Below are positions 9,579 through 24,901 of a stretch of 25,381 nt of DNA, one piece after another (the first letter of the stretch is position 1; each line of letters opens with the position of its first letter). The position numbers were made by a program, and so were the translations under genes. The notes under the pieces were generated by a model. It worked only from the letters and a program-made list of their open reading frames with translations. It was not told where the DNA came from and made no database searches. The stretch lies in IMG/VR virus record IMGVR_UViG_3300027728_000083, positions 1 to 25,381 of that record. One strand, 5' to 3'. Source of the DNA: a virus (lineage: Duplodnaviria; Caudoviricetes).

Positions 9579-11204
9579 TTAGTAGCTGCCGCCTCCGCGG
9601 GACTTCATGCTGCCGCCGTCGATGAACATCGCGTCGGAAAGGCAAATGTAGCGCAGCACGTCGATGGGATCTTTGGTCGGCGCCTTCTTGCCGTCCGCTC
9701 CGGTATAGGTCTGCAGCGCATAGATCGTGTTCTTGCAGTTCTCCGAGATGTAGAGCCGTGGCTGGTTGCGCGCGTCCACCGGCTGGTCCGGATTGTATGA
9801 CAGCATGTCGTTAATCATCCCAACACCCTCGTCGATGGAGTCGCCCGGCGTGGCCGTGAAGAACATGTCCAAGGACGCCATCTCATCGATGAGCGTGGTC
9901 GGCGCCTCCTTGCCGAGCGTCTTCGAATGGCCATAGCGGCTGTCCATCCACCGCTCGAAGATGGGCTCGCCGGCCTCAACGCGCAGGATCTCGTCTTTGT
10001 AGCGCTCAAGGCCGAAGCCGAAGTCCTGCATGGCGGGACCGGGGCGGCCGTCCATGCGTTTGCCATCGGGCAGCGCCCACTCGCCGGCGTAGCCAATGCC
10101 TTCAATGTATTCGGTCTGGCTGGGCCACTCGCGGTAGACGATGGTGCGGCCCGCGGGGTCAAAGACGGTCCAGAGCATGAACCAGTTCTTGCCGGACGCC
10201 GGATCGACCCAGTGATAGCGGGTGCCGTTCGGTATTTCTGAATGGCGAATGACGTGCACCTTGGGATTGAACAGCGGAAAGCGGCCGGCGATGGCTTTGG
10301 TGGGCACACCGTAGGCGCGGGTGAGGATTTTCTCCCGGGTCTCAGACTGCAGCTCGCGCTTCATGCGGGACCATCCGGCCCAAGGGTTTGACTGCGTGTG
10401 AAAGTAGAGAACTGGGCGGCCCTTGGGGTTGATCTGCTCGATGGGCACCTGCTCGTGGCCAATGACCTTGCCGTCTGCGTCTTTCCGCGGGAGAAGCTCG
10501 GCGTCGATCTCCTCCACGTTCTTGGCGCCGTTGAGGTAGTCGGCGACCGTGGGCGACCAGCCCTGCACCGGGGTGAAGGTCACGGCGAGCTTGCCGTTGC
10601 GGTCAACGAGGCGGAACCGGAGGGTTTCCAAAACATCAAGCGGCACCAACTCATCGCACCAGCACGCATCAATCTCGCCGCCTTCAATGGTGGACGGATC
10701 TTGGGCGTAATTGCGGAAGATGCAGACCGCCTGGTTGGGCGCGACAAACTTGGCCTCGGTAAAACCGCCCTTAACGCTGTAGGTGATGTTGGTGACCTGT
10801 CCCTTGCGCGCATTACGCCACTCCGGCGGCATGTACTTCCAGATTCGGGGCTGCTGCAACTCGATGGAGTTTGGCGCCGTGGTTTGGAAGCACCAGACGA
10901 CCGATCCGGGCTTGGAATACATGGTCTTGATGACTTCTTTCGCCGCCCATTCGGTTTTGCCGCTGCGATTTCCGCCCATGACAAGCAACTCGCGGTGTTT
11001 TTCCAGTAGTTCGGACGCGCGGCGCCACACGGGAGGGATGAAACCGTGACGGAATGGGTCATTGGACTCGCGGGCGATTAATTCCTCGCGCTTTTTGAGG
11101 TACGCCCAGCCCTCCTCGGCTCCTAATGAAGCGAGATAGTCATAGTCAACCTGCATCACGGGATGCGGAGCTGGCGTAAAGCGGGATTGGTGGGCGTTTT
11201 CCAA
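9579..11204 (-). CDS. terL: Terminase large subunit
   Basis: Walker A GGNRSGKT, Walker B CWCDE, coupling motif TFTP, RNase H-like WVDP and KDPID.LRY; TTG at 11204 chosen as start (frame open to 11282). Confidence 0.92.
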   Translation of the reverse strand: MENAHQSRFTPAPHPVMQVDYDYLASLGAEEGWAYLKKREELIARESNDPFRHGFIPPVWRRASELLEKHRELLVMGGNRSGKTEWAAKEVIKTMYSKPGSVVWCFQTTAPNSIELQQPRIWKYMPPEWRNARKGQVTNITYSVKGGFTEAKFVAPNQAVCIFRNYAQDPSTIEGGEIDACWCDELVPLDVLETLRFRLVDRNGKLAVTFTPVQGWSPTVADYLNGAKNVEEIDAELLPRKDADGKVIGHEQVPIEQINPKGRPVLYFHTQSNPWAGWSRMKRELQSETREKILTRAYGVPTKAIAGRFPLFNPKVHVIRHSEIPNGTRYHWVDPASGKNWFMLWTVFDPAGRTIVYREWPSQTEYIEGIGYAGEWALPDGKRMDGRPGPAMQDFGFGLERYKDEILRVEAGEPIFERWMDSRYGHSKTLGKEAPTTLIDEMASLDMFFTATPGDSIDEGVGMINDMLSYNPDQPVDARNQPRLYISENCKNTIYALQTYTGADGKKAPTKDPIDVLRYICLSDAMFIDGGSMKSRGGGSY

Positions 11205-11209
11205 AGTAA

Positions 11210-11482
11210 TTAGGACGCCGAGCCGGTGCCCTGCGCCGGGCCAGCTTCCCCAAGCTGTTGTTGAGCCGTCTCGGCGTCCCAAGGTTGCTTCCCAACGATG
11301 TCCATCGTCGGGTTTTCTAAAACTGTCACTTGATCCGACCGGAAGTGCCGGATCTTGCCGCCGTCCTCGAGGACAACGGCGAAAATGTCATTCGACAGCG
11401 GGCCGCCAGACTCAACGTAGAGCAGGCTGCCGTAGCCGACCGGTGTCTCCACTGGGACAATGCGCTGGAATTCGTGGATCAT
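11210..11482 (-). CDS. Hypothetical protein, 90 aa
   Basis: MIHEFQRIVPVETPVGYG...ND...G.IRHF resembles a common small phage family. Confidence 0.7.
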   Translation of the reverse strand: MIHEFQRIVPVETPVGYGSLLYVESGGPLSNDIFAVVLEDGGKIRHFRSDQVTVLENPTMDIVGKQPWDAETAQQQLGEAGPAQGTGSAS

Positions 11483-11490
11483 TAAAAATG

Positions 11491-11593
11491 TGACGGCGCG
11501 GAGGTTCGCTGCAGGCGCCTCCGCTCGCTCACACCACATGCTCTCGGCCGCCACACCACATCGCAGGCCGCTGCAGAGCGTTTGATGCCGTCA
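11491..11593 (-). ncRNA. Candidate structured RNA (three-stem junction)
   Basis: Closing stem TGACGGC/GCCGTCA; inner stems GCGGAGG/CCTCCGC and GCTCT+CGGCC/GGCCG+AGAGC; fills an intergenic gap with A/T-rich flanks; strand assumed from the operon. Confidence 0.55.
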
Positions 11594-11600
11594 GATAAAT

Positions 11601-11756
11601 TCATCGGCGCGCTTTCTTCGCTGCCATTTCGGCACACAGAGCGTCGGCCTTTTTCTTGGCCGACTTGGCGACCATCGTGGCGCGCAGACCCTTGAGACGC
11701 ATGATCTCGTTGTCGATGGCCTCAATCTCGGGTGTCATCGTTTTATATTTTTCCAT
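11601..11756 (-). CDS. Small basic coiled-coil protein, 51 aa
   Basis: MEKYKTMTPEIEAIDNEI...; starts 4 nt after the upstream stop. Confidence 0.6.
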   Translation of the reverse strand: MEKYKTMTPEIEAIDNEIMRLKGLRATMVAKSAKKKADALCAEMAAKKARR

Positions 11757-15961: not shown

Positions 15962-16145
15962 CGCGTTTCCTCCGCAGCTCTGCGCGGCGCTTCAACCAGC
16001 GCTCGCACGCGGCGTCCACTATGGGGATGCTTTCTTCGGTGAATGGGTCGAGCCATAGGTGTGGTGCGGTTTCCGGTTGTGGTAGGTCGGCGAATTTTTC
16101 CATGGCACTAAAGGGACTGCGTGTGGTGTGCCGCGGTGTGTCCAT
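15888..16145 (-). CDS. Hypothetical protein (start 16145 or 16102)
   Basis: ORF track; DAACERWL segment resembles HAACDRFL in 16400-16594. Confidence 0.5.
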   Translation of the reverse strand: MDTPRHTTRSPFSAMEKFADLPQPETAPHLWLDPFTEESIPIVDAACERWLKRRAELRRKRDERTADNLPAADCAGHDCHSDLGK

Positions 16146-16166
16146 GAGTGTCCCAAACCGTCCACG

Positions 16167-16400
16167 TCATGGCAAGAGTTTTTCTGCGGGCAGATCAAGA
16201 TTTTCCGGGTCGGTCACGAGCAGGGCTTCGTGCTTCTCTTGGGCGGCCGCGGGGGTCAGCGCGGCGCAGCCTTGGAGGGCTTGCCGGAGCAGCCGGCGAT
16301 GGCTCTTGAGGTCGGCGATCTTGGATTCCAAATCGCGGATCTTGATGGACTGAATGCTGGACTCCGCCTGGGCGGGGCCGAAGTTGATTTGGCCGAGCAT
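16167..16400 (-). CDS. Hypothetical coiled-coil protein, 77 aa
   Basis: MLGQINFG... start overlaps the upstream stop (TAATG). Confidence 0.65.
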   Translation of the reverse strand: MLGQINFGPAQAESSIQSIKIRDLESKIADLKSHRRLLRQALQGCAALTPAAAQEKHEALLVTDPENLDLPAEKLLP

Positions 16401-19554: not shown

Positions 19555-20154
19555 CTAATCAAGGGTGATAATGTCACGATTGGTCACTATCGGTGCTGGA
19601 GGTAGGCTCGGCGTCTCTGTTTGTGGCGGCCGCTCCTGACCCTCGACCGGTATAAACGCCACATCCACGACCTCAGAGCCCTTCCGCAGGCCAGCCACGA
19701 ATGTGATCCACTCGTCAGCCGCTGGGGCCAGCACGTGTTCAACCCGCTGTGTTGCACCGCCGGACAGCAGCTCTGCCTTCTCGCTTGCCACAGCCGACAT
19801 GATGACTAGGCCGTGGTCCTTCATATCCGGCACGCGGTCAAGAAGTTCTGCCGTGCCGACAGCCGCGAGGGTTTTCCAATTGTTGGCAGCCGTCTGGCGG
19901 GCCTTGTCTAGTGCCTCGGGACGGTTGCGGATGAGCGCAATGATGGTGTGGTAGGACGTGTTGTAGGCTCGGGCAATGCGCGTGGCTGGCATCCCTGAAA
20001 CGTGCGCCGCGAGGATCTCAGCGACCTTGCCCGGGGGCACATCTTGGCCGGTGTGGCCCTGGACACTGACCAGTTCTTTGCCCTCGTCATCCTTGATGAT
20101 CTTGACGCGGTGTCCGCCGGCCTTGGGCTTTGATCGTGTTTTAGGTCTCGCCAT
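19555..20154 (-). CDS. terS: Terminase small subunit (putative), 199 aa
   Basis: HTH (G.PATRIARAYNTSYHTI), helical middle, AVASEKAELLSG.AT.RVEH, disordered tail; followed by a pac-like G-tract region. Confidence 0.6.
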   Translation of the reverse strand: MARPKTRSKPKAGGHRVKIIKDDEGKELVSVQGHTGQDVPPGKVAEILAAHVSGMPATRIARAYNTSYHTIIALIRNRPEALDKARQTAANNWKTLAAVGTAELLDRVPDMKDHGLVIMSAVASEKAELLSGGATQRVEHVLAPAADEWITFVAGLRKGSEVVDVAFIPVEGQERPPQTETPSLPPAPIVTNRDIITLD

Positions 20155-20637: not shown

Positions 20638-20756
20638 GGTTTGGTCTTGGTTAGTTTGCTAAAGATCCGCTGGCACATGGCCATCAGCGCATCCACAGGG
20701 ATGCATGGGCGTGTGCCGTGGTAGTTGCGGGCGTGGAGTTGGCTTGGGACGGTCAT
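20634..20756 (-). CDS. Small hypothetical protein, 40 aa
   Basis: MTVPSQLHAR...KTKP; ATGA-coupled at both ends. Confidence 0.5.
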   Translation of the reverse strand: MTVPSQLHARNYHGTRPCIPVDALMAMCQRIFSKLTKTKP

Positions 20757-21919
20757 GGCTGGTGCTCCATCAGCTCACTAACAAGAAGCCTAAACGCTCG
20801 CTCTGCGACGGCTGGCACAACGCCATTCCCGAGGAGTCGCAACTCGTCGGTGCGGTTGTCACAGGATTCACACAGCTGGGCATAGTCCAGCCCACAGGGA
20901 GACCCATCAACGTCTCGACCCAGCGGGGGTTCAGCCTGCCGCTCTGCCGTCTCTCCACCATGTTCTTCGCCTTGCGGGCTTCCCAAGATTCTGCTGACTC
21001 GTCTTGCTGCCACGGCGTCGGCGTTGCCCACTGCTTCTGATTCTCCAACATTGCTTTCACGTGCAGAAGGTTTGTGTGATTCCCTCCCTTCGCTTGGAAC
21101 GGAGTTATACCGCTTTGTTTCCCATCCTGCATTGTTGGTGTCGGCCACTGCTTCTTTATCTCCTCCGCAAACACTTGATCCCCGGTAATGTGGTCGCGGG
21201 CTGTTGGGGTTCCGCATTTCGCTTCGGATGCTCGCGGGGTTCCCCACTGTTCTCGGCGGCTCCCATCCGTGCTGCTGCTCGCCTGGGCGGCTTGGCCAAA
21301 CATCACACTCACTGCTTGCCCAAGCGTCTGCTCCGACATATTCGGTCGGCTCGGTGGGTGTGTTCCGGTTATAGAATCCTTCCAGTCCCTTGCATTCGCG
21401 GTAGGCCAAGATAAAGACCCGCTTCCTCTGGTGAGGCGCGCCGCATTCACGCGCTGACGCCACGCACCACGTCGGTCGGTAACCCAGTCCGACCAGGTCT
21501 TGCAAAACGTCGGGCAGCCCCAGCGAGATATGTCCTTCGACGTTTTCAAAGAAACAGACACCCGGTCGCATGAGAGCAATTCCGGCTGATATGTGAGGCC
21601 AGAGGTGTCTGGGATCTTCTTTGCCAAGCCGCTTTCCTGCTGTGCTGAAGGGCTGGCAGGGATAACCTCCAGAGAGGATGTCCACGCGGTCACGAAAGTC
21701 TGACCATGGGAAGGTTTTAAGGTCCGTCCAGATAGGCGCGCAGTCCAAGAGTCCCGCTTCCATCTTTGCGACCAGGTTCGCGCAGGCGAAGGCTTCGATC
21801 TCGCTAACAGCGATTGTGCGCAGATTTCGGATTGCTCGGTGGAGTCCGAGATCAATGCCTCCGTATCCGGCACAAAGGGAGACGTGTGTAACTGGCGAGG
21901 CAGAACCCACATGGCTCAT
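20753..21919 (-). CDS. C5-cytosine DNA methyltransferase, alpha chain (motifs I-VIII, X)
   Basis: SLCAGYGG, GGYPCQPFS, FFENV, HQRKRVFI, LRLLGNGV. Confidence 0.9.
   Translation of the reverse strand: MSHVGSASPVTHVSLCAGYGGIDLGLHRAIRNLRTIAVSEIEAFACANLVAKMEAGLLDCAPIWTDLKTFPWSDFRDRVDILSGGYPCQPFSTAGKRLGKEDPRHLWPHISAGIALMRPGVCFFENVEGHISLGLPDVLQDLVGLGYRPTWCVASARECGAPHQRKRVFILAYRECKGLEGFYNRNTPTEPTEYVGADAWASSECDVWPSRPGEQQHGWEPPRTVGNPASIRSEMRNPNSPRPHYRGSSVCGGDKEAVADTNNAGWETKRYNSVPSEGRESHKPSARESNVGESEAVGNADAVAARRVSRILGSPQGEEHGGETAERQAEPPLGRDVDGSPCGLDYAQLCESCDNRTDELRLLGNGVVPAVAERAFRLLVSELMEHQP
20770..21912 (-). CDS. C5 methyltransferase beta chain in an overlapping frame (WxTP repeats plus motif IX)
   Basis: WPTA/WGTP/WPTP/WATP repeats and RLNPRWVETLMGLPVGWT; 380 codons open inside the alpha gene. 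Confidence 0.75.
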   Translation of the reverse strand: MWVLPRQLHTSPFVPDTEALISDSTEQSEICAQSLLARSKPSPARTWSQRWKRDSWTARLSGRTLKPSHGQTFVTAWTSSLEVIPASPSAQQESGLAKKIPDTSGLTYQPELLSCDRVSVSLKTSKDISRWGCPTFCKTWSDWVTDRRGAWRQRVNAARLTRGSGSLSWPTANARDWKDSITGTHPPSRPNMSEQTLGQAVSVMFGQAAQASSSTDGSRREQWGTPRASEAKCGTPTARDHITGDQVFAEEIKKQWPTPTMQDGKQSGITPFQAKGGNHTNLLHVKAMLENQKQWATPTPWQQDESAESWEARKAKNMVERRQSGRLNPRWVETLMGLPVGWTMPSCVNPVTTAPTSCDSSGMALCQPSQSERLGFLLVS

Positions 21920-22056: not shown

Positions 22057-22178
22057 CGCCGGCCTCCAATCTTGTTGATTGCGTTGAGGGCGATGGAGCC
22101 GACGACGAGTAACCCGACGAGCGACATGAAGGTCGCATCGGTGAGGTAGCTAAGGACGTCCAGTGGTGTGGGTGTCAT
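22053..22178 (-). CDS. Small single-TM protein, 41 aa
   Basis: MTPTPLDVLSYLTDATFMSLVGLLVVGSIALNAINKIGGRR; first gene of the leftward operon. Confidence 0.55.
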   Translation of the reverse strand: MTPTPLDVLSYLTDATFMSLVGLLVVGSIALNAINKIGGRR

Positions 22179-22213: not shown

Positions 22214-22242
22214 ATAATTGCAGACATGCGCGGACAGCGCAA
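22214..22242 (-). promoter_or_regulatory. Leftward promoter with overlapping TGTC repeats
   Basis: Minus strand TTGCGC-17 bp-AATTAT with TGn extension. Confidence 0.45.
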
Positions 22243-22309: not shown

Positions 22310-22419
22310 CATTTTATGAAAACCAACAAACGACGCCCTAGAAACCTGTCTAAAAAACGCAAAAACTTAAACACGTTGCTCGGCGTTTTTGCGGTAAAAC
22401 AGGCCATTTTACTCTGTAG

Positions 22420-22479
22420 GAAAAAAACTTTCAGAAAATTGATCTTTTTTCTTGCATTCCCCAGCGTCTGGCGTATAGT
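22420..22479 (+). promoter_or_regulatory. Rightward sigma70 promoter with UP-like A/T tracts
   Basis: TTGCAT (22452-22457)-16 bp-TATAGT (22474-22479); A/T tracts upstream; ATG at 22489. Confidence 0.6.
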
Positions 22480-22488
22480 AGGGGAGTA

Positions 22489-22872
22489 ATGAAAACACAC
22501 ACCACAACGGGCGCGGGGAATTCCGCCGCGCAAATCACCACCCGCTACACCAACGCCGGAAAAATGCCCGACGAAACTCAGTTTGACTACGTAATTGAGG
22601 TTTCCGCATGGGCGGACACCGGAACGGCCGGATATATCGGCGTCAGCGGGCAGCCCACGAACGATGACTTGAGAGCCATGCTCTCCGAGGAAGTGGCCGA
22701 GTTGCAGCGATGGATCGATGCGGAAGCAAAAAAGGGGAACATGGACGAGCGCACCGACGAGCCGCAGGTCGCCGAGGTTCGTCAACGCCCCGCGTCCGCA
22801 GACGGCGATTGCCCGCCGTCCCATGAATGGCCGGTTGTCATTGCCGAACTCATGGCGAAGGAGGTCGCATGA
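22489..22872 (+). CDS. Hypothetical acidic early protein, 127 aa
   Basis: Follows the promoter; GGAGG and ATGA coupling to the next gene. Confidence 0.75.
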   Translation: MKTHTTTGAGNSAAQITTRYTNAGKMPDETQFDYVIEVSAWADTGTAGYIGVSGQPTNDDLRAMLSEEVAELQRWIDAEAKKGNMDERTDEPQVAEVRQRPASADGDCPPSHEWPVVIAELMAKEVA

Positions 22873-23075: not shown

Positions 23076-23483
23076 ATGAAAACCGCCTACTACCAACACC
23101 ACATGACGGGCGAGGAACTCAGCGTTGCCGTCGCTGCGATAAAAGAAACTAAAATGGAGCGTGCGCTCCGCCGTCTTCCGAATGGCTGGACACACTCATT
23201 TCACGACGACGGGAGCGACGGTTACCCAACCTACCGCTATAAGGCCGTCCCGGTATGGGGCGTGAGCATATACGACGAAAACGAGGTTCAGGTGGCGTAT
23301 GCCAGCAAGCCCGAAAAAGGATCGCGGACGCGGACTCCGCACGGAGAACTTATGGCGGATGGAGAGCCGGCGGCCAAGCGCAATGCGGCGCGGGTCGCCG
23401 TTAACCGGTTCGCCGCGGCGATGTGGGGACAGCACCCTATTTGGGCCGCGAACTGTTATTTCACGGAAACGGAAAATGAATAA
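23076..23483 (+). CDS. Hypothetical protein, 135 aa
   Basis: Long A/C-rich leader before ATG. Confidence 0.7.
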   Translation: MKTAYYQHHMTGEELSVAVAAIKETKMERALRRLPNGWTHSFHDDGSDGYPTYRYKAVPVWGVSIYDENEVQVAYASKPEKGSRTRTPHGELMADGEPAAKRNAARVAVNRFAAAMWGQHPIWAANCYFTETENE

Positions 23484-24515: not shown

Positions 24516-24809
24516 TTAATCCGGTAGTTCGACCCGCTGATCCATGGTCGCGTAGTGCCGCTCAGTCGTTGAGCTGGTCGTGTGCCCGAGGAACCTTGAG
24601 ACGGTGCGCAGGACCGAGCTATCAAAAAGGGTGCCGTAAACGTCGGTTATTGTGTATAGCCATTGACGTTTCATAAATGCCGCGCGGCCCATGGCGAGGT
24701 TGGTCTTCTGCGAGGCCGGCGCCAGCTGTGTCTTGCGCAGGAAGTCCGAGACCAGCTTCCGGTTGAGGCGGGTGAGGGGAAGCGCGCGGAGTTTCTCCCG
24801 GTCGGTCAC
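24516..24809 (-). pseudogene. int: Internally deleted tyrosine integrase (97-aa open remnant)
   Basis: C-terminal VSRFLGHTTSSTTERHYA (LGH...Y); N-terminal part resembles core-binding-domain helices; catalytic R, K and HxxR absent; adjacent to a tRNA fragment. Confidence 0.75.
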
Positions 24810-24862: not shown

Positions 24863-24901
24863 GCCGGTATAGCTCAGCTGGTAGAGCACCTGATTTGTAA
24901 T
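24863..24901 (+). tRNA. 5' half of tRNA-Thr(UGU), probable attP identity block
   Basis: GCCGGTA-TA-GCTC-AGCTGGTA-GAGC-A-CCTGA-TTTGTAA-T, then diverges (AAGC instead of CAGG); no T-arm or 3' acceptor strand. Confidence 0.85.

Follow-up and report, generated by a model that had tools for sequence, protein, structure and literature searches.

A predicted 103-nt structured RNA, encoded on the minus strand of a phage genome fragment, carries a loop that is the exact complement of a tag at the phage's own early-gene starts. The element represents a real, apparently undescribed RNA family. We consider it probable that it is a trans-acting antisense RNA from the lytic operon, which would pair with early-gene starts, block initiation and provide delayed feedback.

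The window (the whole stretch of DNA analysed, 25,381 nt) is a 25-kb phage piece with nearly all genes on the minus strand and a short rightward unit that begins at 22489. Its genes match a terminase large subunit, an SU10-type capsid protein, a DnaB helicase and an ssDNA-binding protein, and further a RusA-like resolvase, an O-like initiator and methyltransferases; family matching detected no antirepressor family among the 55 window ORFs. Two ORFs of 388 and 380 codons at 20753-21919 (minus strand), which overlap almost fully in different frames, both match DNA methyltransferase families. The element is flanked by a 72-codon ORF, whose end is at 11601, and a small gene that begins at 11482, with the terminase frame ~200 bases on, and its downstream neighbour varies freely among relatives. 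Terminase relatives among genome bins belong to Verrucomicrobia in 4/4 cases (best 77%, in a Chthoniobacterales bin); the sequence matches make Verrucomicrobia the likely host group, and the element carriers form a mostly temperate freshwater phage family whose hosts probably belong to this phylum. The features of the RNA and its neighbour are as follows.

11491..11593, minus strand: predicted 103-nt structured RNA, a pseudoknotted three-way junction with P1 as closing stem (covariation, 35 variants)
11587..11593, minus strand: 5′ strand of P1, pairs with 11491-11497 (243/245 cells Watson-Crick, 2 positions compensatory)
11577..11580, minus strand: 5′ strand of P2a, pairs with 11526-11529 (134/140 cells paired, 18 G-U)
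11571..11576, minus strand: 5′ strand of the pseudoknot, pairs with the P3 loop at 11509-11514 (210/210 cells paired, all 6 positions covary)
11566..11570, minus strand: 5′ strand of P2b, pairs with 11545-11549 (173/175 cells paired)
11550..11565, minus strand: apical loop with guide copy 1 (AUGUGGUGUG at 11561-11552; CAUGUGGUGUG invariant in 20 subtype-II variants)
11530..11544, minus strand: internal loop with guide copy 2 (CAUGUGGUGUG at 11540-11530; guide copy in subtype I only)
11498..11524, minus strand: P3 hairpin of 7+2 bp with AA bulge and 7-nt pseudoknot-forming loop, adjoining the P1 3′ strand (315/315 cells paired, 14 G-U)
9579..11282, minus strand: terminase large subunit gene, downstream of the RNA (PHROG 2, Pfam Terminase_6N)

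The fold runs from P1 (7 bp) through a 6-nt linker, P2a (4 bp), a 6-nt strand and P2b (5 bp) with the apical loop to an internal loop of 15-17 nt, a single A and P3, and the pseudoknot joins the 7-nt loop of P3 to the 6-nt strand between P2a and P2b. We scored 31 pairs in 35 distinct variants (15 of subtype I and 20 of subtype II). On the minus strand, 1075 of the 1085 cells pair, 1039 as Watson-Crick and 36 as G-U, and none of the 10 others is A-C; at least two Watson-Crick types occur at 20 of the 31 pairs. An alignment of 25 rows is 97.7% paired, with two-sided changes at 19/31 pairs and at 6/6 in the pseudoknot; five subtype-I rows in it are one column off in P2b, which lowers the P2b count. 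Its covariation score was reached by 0 of 500 shuffles, and slid controls gave 32-46%.

The initial annotation, a reading of the window's letters, had paired TGACGGC (11491-97) with GCCGTCA (11587-93) and GCGGAGG (11498-504) with CCTCCGC (11518-24); both helices lie where it had put them, P1 covaries and P3 is fully paired in the 35 variants. It had made conservation and covariation of the stems a test of its proposal, and the stems and the pseudoknot covary in these variants. The pseudoknot that it had suggested for the self-complementary CTGCAG (11509-14 and 11571-76) forms 6 bp and covaries at all six positions. Its second stem held in the inner part, P2b, paired in 173/175 cells, whereas the outer GCTCT/AGAGC is an alternative helix and the best-conserved neighbour pairing is CGCT 11526-29 with AGCG 11577-80. 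Given this conserved P2a pairing, the guide copy at 11530-39, which had been assigned to the junction, has to be relocated to the internal loop. The alternative helix is 86.7% paired in the 15 subtype-I variants, competes with P2a and the pseudoknot, and is not seen in subtype II. In subtype II (L376, L380, L032 and others) the internal loop can fold into a small hairpin whose own loop contains or adjoins CAU, and CAU is also present in the internal loop of the sister-clade RNA described below.

Covariation of the pseudoknot does not separate intramolecular from intermolecular pairing. The phi29 pRNA is a three-way junction with two complementary single-stranded regions, encoded near packaging genes, and an RNA of this kind, whose loop and internal loop pair between molecules to form a prohead ring, would account for the three-way junction, for covarying complementary single strands that are self-complementary in the window, and for a position just upstream of the terminase. 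We regard this as very improbable: the phage is of the terminase type, with an ordinary terminase large subunit and an SU10-type capsid protein, and its motor is presumably not phi29-type. Rfam gives no match, and the match of the exposed loop to mRNA starts would be left unexplained.

The 36 wobble cells, which fall at nine positions, are all G-U when read on the minus strand; on the plus strand, each would become an A-C mismatch. The RNA strand is therefore the minus (operon) strand, and the operon-strand reading of the guide given in the initial annotation, AUGUGGUGUG, stands. Folding of the single sequence favours the plus strand (z = -3.5, versus z = -1.1 for the minus strand). Together with the appearance of CACACCACAU in mRNA sense on the plus strand, this would suit a decoy, a CsrB-type sponge for a tag that is itself a protein-bound or strong initiation signal. 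The wobble cells contradict this reading, no plus-strand promoter was called and most variants are single-copy, which leaves it with a very small probability; unlike CsrB or RsmZ, the structured strand carries the complement rather than the same-sense site, mostly in one copy. On the minus strand, the consensus fold is calculated at -32.8 kcal/mol versus a minimum of -48.3 kcal/mol, and other structures are preferred by the folding software, in which the pseudoknot cannot be scored. The software predicts parts of both guide copies as paired, so that access to the loop is argued from comparison only.

Searching with the downstream gene returned 68 loci, and the element beside close relatives of the window yielded the 15 distinct subtype-I variants and one further locus. 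The model built from these variants (R1) revealed the second subtype near terminase relatives, of which the best 80 of 234 were kept, 60 of these at 82-85% identity. The element lies upstream of the terminase in 56 of these 60 (46 match R1 and 10 more match a second model, R2); three are cut by contig ends, and the four relatives with no element match offer 250-2,074 bases of upstream sequence. The guide is lost at locus L354 and the 3′ half at locus L347. Rfam gave no meaningful match on the window up to E 5 (one hit, a human lncRNA at E 3.9) and none on six homologue loci of three subtypes up to E 10 (three hits, E 4-10). The element is unmatched in the GenBank phage collection. Of three sequence-pattern searches, a loose DNA pattern (100 loci scanned with R1) gave one new homologue and otherwise noise, a second loose DNA pattern (120 loci, nhmmer) only known copies, and a metagenome pattern (116 loci) only subtype-II copies among chance hits. 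With only 25 candidates scored in each of 151 genomes from the likely host order, R2 gave no match there, and no RNA holder was among the runs listed in a sequencing-run lookup. We found no account of the element in the literature searched, and four supplement files of Fremin 2023 (PMC10690425) held no match. On two unrelated viral contigs (L005:2990-3090 and L008:2950-3050), repeated CACACCACATCG or CACATCG units sit in GC-rich stems that neither model matches.

Every variant of subtypes I and II (n = 35) keeps GUGGUGUG. GTGGTGTG is kept in 35/35 (28 once, 7 twice) and CATGTGGTGTG in 23. The initial annotation had noted CACACCACAT twice in the window, at 11530-39 and 11552-61, where it indeed occurs; the duplication it emphasised is non-essential, since 28 of the 35 variants have a single intact copy. 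One copy may drift in two-copy variants, and the single subtype-II copy is invariant. The covariation between loop and targets that it had proposed to look for did not materialise base by base inside subtypes I and II, where the guide barely varies, and apical loops that have drifted to GGAUGGUGUG have no correspondingly altered targets.

We counted the complement of the guide in 16 RNA-bearing records, leaving out duplicates and one record with no control region. Starts were defined as ATG opening at least 40 codons, from crude calls in genomes that are related. Outside the RNA, 44 of 47 occurrences of CACACCACA lie within 16 nt of an ATG, in 16/16 genomes; near-start positions make up 12.8% of the sequence and 125 letter permutations give 30%. 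Leaders rich in A/C are frequent, with AAAACCAAA close to a start in 15/16 genomes; CACACCACA ranks 1 of 512 A/C 9-mers at starts, above every other, which bears out the start-codon enrichment on which the initial annotation had staked its proposal. The tagged ORFs form 25 protein clusters with differing frames and offsets, and the tag is thus not a by-product of one conserved protein. The full 11-mer CACACCACATG, which includes the start codon, occurs 16 times in 571 kb, always opposite to the operon strand and always opening an ORF of at least 30 codons; in the window, it is at no annotated start. It occurs only three times in 11 Mb of host bins (four Verrucomicrobia bins) and so is not a general host signal. 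In these terms, the element has a conserved seed complementary to the initiation regions of several unlinked mRNAs, which points to a putative multi-target antisense small RNA.

In the window, CACACCAC was observed 5 times versus 0.92 expected, and 1 of 100 shuffles reached 5. The candidate targets, with predicted guide-target duplexes of -17 to -23 kcal/mol, are listed below.

22498..22506, plus strand: CACACCACA, candidate target in the first rightward ORF (ATG 22489), position +9 (predicted duplex -18.4 kcal/mol)
22162..22170, minus strand: CACACCAC, candidate target in the first leftward ORF (41 aa, ATG 22178), position +8 (predicted duplex -18.1 kcal/mol)
16122..16130, minus strand: candidate target upstream of the DnaB gene, in the leader of an internal promoter-like site flanked by probable operators (predicted duplex -23.4 kcal/mol)
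23096..23105, plus strand: candidate target ACACCACATG around the in-frame ATG 23103 of ORF 23076-23483 (10 bp, predicted -17.2 kcal/mol)

Three sites for CACACCAC had been named previously, at 22498 (plus), 22163-70 (minus) and 16123-30 (minus), each shortly after a start codon. The coordinates are right; the third site probably does not follow a start but lies 27 nt upstream of one, the likely start ATG 16103, and the near-complete fourth site, ACACCACATG at 23096-23105 (plus), had been overlooked. On the DnaB side, the start is probably the in-frame ATG 16103 because ATG 16145 is only 2 nt below a -10-like hexamer (by eye). This third site follows an internal promoter-like sequence that bears the direct repeats of the control region (by eye). 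The leftward carrier of the tag is an HTH_17 gene, or the 41-aa gene where the HTH_17 gene is not in front: the 41-aa gene is tagged in 8/8 genomes with no tagged HTH_17 gene ahead of it versus 0/7 with one. We abandoned the rule that the tag is always found on the gene heading the leftward operon, as five genomes have another small gene in front. A duplex scan that set the entire apical domain against every start region was uninformative, GC-rich chance pairing dominating. Promoter-like hexamer pairs were seen by eye at 16147-16175 (minus), 22214-22242 (minus) and 22452-22479 (plus); the promoter scan called none of them. In relatives, short direct repeats overlap such promoter-like sites, and the repeat sequence differs between phage groups in step at all sites; these repeats are probable operators.

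In the mechanism that we propose, the minus-strand element would be transcribed within the leftward lytic operon, ~11 kb in, and a small RNA would likely be cut out of the operon transcript. By analogy with c4, our guess is release by RNase P at the 7-bp P1, stacked on P3 like the acceptor and T arm of a tRNA. The released RNA would likely pair in trans over or beside the AUG of early genes and block their translation, the rigid scaffold presenting the loop without Hfq, which was detected in 1 of 61 genomes of the likely host order. In five records, 10.6-12.0 kb separate the RNA from the first leftward target upstream of it; the replication genes precede the RNA and the packaging genes follow directly. 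Being so far downstream, the RNA would appear after a delay, as negative feedback; damping the rightward early unit, the leftward operon at its head and the leader of the internal promoter, it would amount to an RNA-based early-gene shut-off. The scan called no promoter near the RNA on either strand, having also missed the by-eye promoter-like sites, and no terminator was called for the RNA.

The family is temperate: a full-length integrase is present in 14 records, and 15 of the 16 RNA-bearing records have a repressor-like gene with divergent promoter-like sites on either side. The label repressor-like refers to this position and to ribbon-helix-helix look-alikes at score 0.94; the protein has no Pfam or PDB match. 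Remnants of this temperate equipment are found in the window.

22316..22335, plus strand: first codons of the repressor-like (ribbon-helix-helix-like) gene, whole in relatives, missing here
24516..24809, minus strand: internally deleted tyrosine-integrase remnant (two pieces match a relative's 381-aa integrase)

At 22316-22460, the repressor-like gene is replaced after six codons. The window lineage appears to derive from a temperate family and to be non-temperate itself; it lacks the repressor-like gene and has a deleted integrase, yet retains the RNA and its sites. Next to the integrase remnant, 24863-24901 (plus) looks by eye like the 5′ half of a tRNA-Thr(UGU) gene, which several relatives also have beside their integrases, and is a probable attachment core; ARAGORN found no whole tRNA in 12 genome stretches.

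The same pairing might have another outcome, either premature termination or decay of nascent early transcripts, or lysogenic immunity and superinfection exclusion. The sites lie within the first tens of bases after promoter-like sequences flanked by direct repeats, the family is temperate, and P4 CI acts by termination (PMC4825925). We nevertheless hold such an outcome to be unlikely: 16 sites include the AUG itself, as initiation blocking predicts, and the RNA lies ~11 kb into a lytic operon with no promoter called. This depth and the retention of RNA and sites after loss of the repressor-like gene and the integrase favour a lytic role. An immunity role is further countered by the finding that the guide is common to phages with different operator repeats and therefore cannot define immunity groups.

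Sister-clade phages, with 66-68% terminase identity (five tested), carry an element after the same upstream gene, with the same topology and a different sequence, at 26 of 30 loci (subtype III, found by eye). Five of these variants are 96.3% paired, with 6 two-sided pairs, one of them in the pseudoknot. The sister-clade RNA has no GUGGUGUG loop, and CACACCACA occurs 0 times in 7 records (219 kb); this joint absence of loop and tag links the one to the other, and retention of the scaffold shows that it can persist without that particular guide. In distant records with no detected RNA (8 records, 342 kb), CACACCACA occurs once. R2 matched nothing in 80 relatives of a 54%-identical terminase, though 26 of 30 in one subgroup hold the subtype-III element; because R2 missed these by-eye elements, failure to detect an RNA in records G021-G028 does not prove that they lack one.

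At starts, neither 8- nor 9-base complements of the sister-clade loops are enriched. CAUAAC lies in the internal loop. By our grouping, the repressor-position gene, the first rightward gene and the integrase each open with GTTATG in five records, as do two operon ORFs in six records apiece. GTT precedes the start in 10/235 contexts in the sister clade versus 3/608 in the other clade, counts taken from crude gene calls in related genomes. The CAUAAC/GUUAUG duplex has six base pairs and a predicted -6 to -10 kcal/mol. The sister clade may perhaps use this pair instead, which we treat as a lead. In the rightward early unit of the sister-clade records G029 and G030, another start tag, AAGGAGACACAC, stands before the ATG, and AAGGAGAC is near a start in 22/26 cases; no complement was found in their RNA.

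A frame runs through the RNA itself, and the element is to that extent not strictly non-coding, as the following feature shows.

11482..11604, minus strand: 40-codon frame spanning the RNA, with an ATGA overlap to the stop upstream and a TAATG overlap to the start downstream; peptide not conserved

This frame is open in 50/50 contexts versus 41/100 for other frames, and in the sister clade in 19/19 versus 2/38. Since the peptide and the register of frame to fold differ, what is kept is openness and not a protein, and the frame likely keeps the downstream genes translationally coupled. We also considered a scaffold that acts mainly in cis on the late operon, as a processing site, a stabiliser of the terminase message or a switch read by the ribosome, with the loop match secondary. 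Survival of scaffold and read-through frame in the sister clade without the GUGGUGUG loop would agree with this, as would the alternative helix of subtype I that excludes the pseudoknot. It fails to explain, however, a tag at distant unrelated gene starts that vanishes with the loop, and the downstream neighbour changes freely; we rate a mainly cis role as improbable.

A more far-reaching version of the preferred antisense reading, offered tentatively, would make the RNA a tRNA-shaped, pseudoknot-locked and re-programmable anti-start-codon device combined with a transcription-length timer. Such an RNA would fold after read-through ribosomes clear and silence the tagged regulon without Hfq, and lineages would swap guide and tag together (CAUGUGGUGUG/CACACCACAUG here, CAUAAC/GUUAUG in the sister clade). 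If true, the sister-clade tag on the repressor-position gene, the integrase and the first early gene would imply that the RNA also locks in lysis.

Two known phage RNAs invite comparison with the antisense RNA proposed here. The c4 RNA of P1/P7 is a multi-stem RNA in an operon, with antisense segments in loops, that pairs at the ribosome-binding region (PMC5320573, PMC12197685). The element resembles c4 (RF01695; c4-2) in its three-stem fold, its loop-borne guide in an operon and its predicted release from a longer transcript. It differs from c4 in several respects: (i) the covariance model gives no match, and the element, of ~100-115 nt, has a covarying pseudoknot, (ii) c4 has distinct a′ and b′ segments for a bipartite target, whereas the element has one motif, in single copy in 28/35 variants, (iii) the c4 target is a nearby antirepressor message in the same operon, whereas the sites of the element lie 4.6-11 kb off on both strands, and (iv) the guide of the element covers the AUG, and the element sits before the terminase and is kept in a non-temperate derivative. 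The 3′ flank of P1 reads CAT in 21/35 variants, not CCA, and a full CCA follows the stem only in the sister clade. P4 CI RNA has a cloverleaf shape with a 3′ CCA. It is processed from the operon whose head it regulates, and two single-stranded segments pair with targets (PMC4825925). In the lysogen, the targets of CI lie close on either side of it and bring about early termination; the element, in contrast, lies ~11 kb downstream and also matches a unit on the opposite strand, with no CACACCAC on the operon strand within 4.5 kb of it. The analogy with c4 and CI drawn in the initial annotation is thus likely sound for the mode of action; it does not extend to family membership, the c4 model having no Rfam match in the window or six homologue loci, or to role, given targets 4.6-11 kb away on both strands and retention after loss of the repressor-like gene and most of the integrase. 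The element likely works like c4 and CI and is a member of neither family.

Two further systems share single features with the element. In Cluster K mycobacteriophages, some unrelated genes carry an asymmetric tag at their starts, the start-associated sequence (SAS), for which binding of an RNA or protein is proposed (PMC3203893). Its sequence and host are different, and no partner was named for it, whereas here a complementary structured RNA lies in the same genome. The Gifsy-1 isrK orf45 is a frame conserved as nucleotides and not as peptide, AUGA-coupled to the gene that follows and overlapping a structured RNA region (PMC4825925). In that system, the RNA activates a nearby coupled frame; we found no such pairing here, and the frame crosses the RNA itself.

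For uncultured phage groups, the element provides a concrete, testable answer to how early genes could be shut off in the absence of an obvious protein switch. The model requires a single structured RNA together with a short tag, gained by new early genes as they join the genome. If the model is true, the c4/CI principle would reach beyond a single immunity target to a whole lytic regulon, in a phylum mostly lacking Hfq. It also suggests a type of binding partner for start-associated tags in other phages and adds a new pseudoknotted scaffold with an exchangeable loop.

Two minor observations concern the neighbourhood of the packaging genes and the operon. A second conserved stretch upstream of the sister-clade terminase (L627:7880-8000, L613, L634, L640) combines a GC-rich hairpin with an ATGA-coupled frame entry. 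A 199-codon ORF at 19555-20154 (minus) in the window, with no family match, resembles by eye a helix-turn-helix protein near the sister-clade operon head and, from its sequence, could be a small terminase subunit or a regulator.
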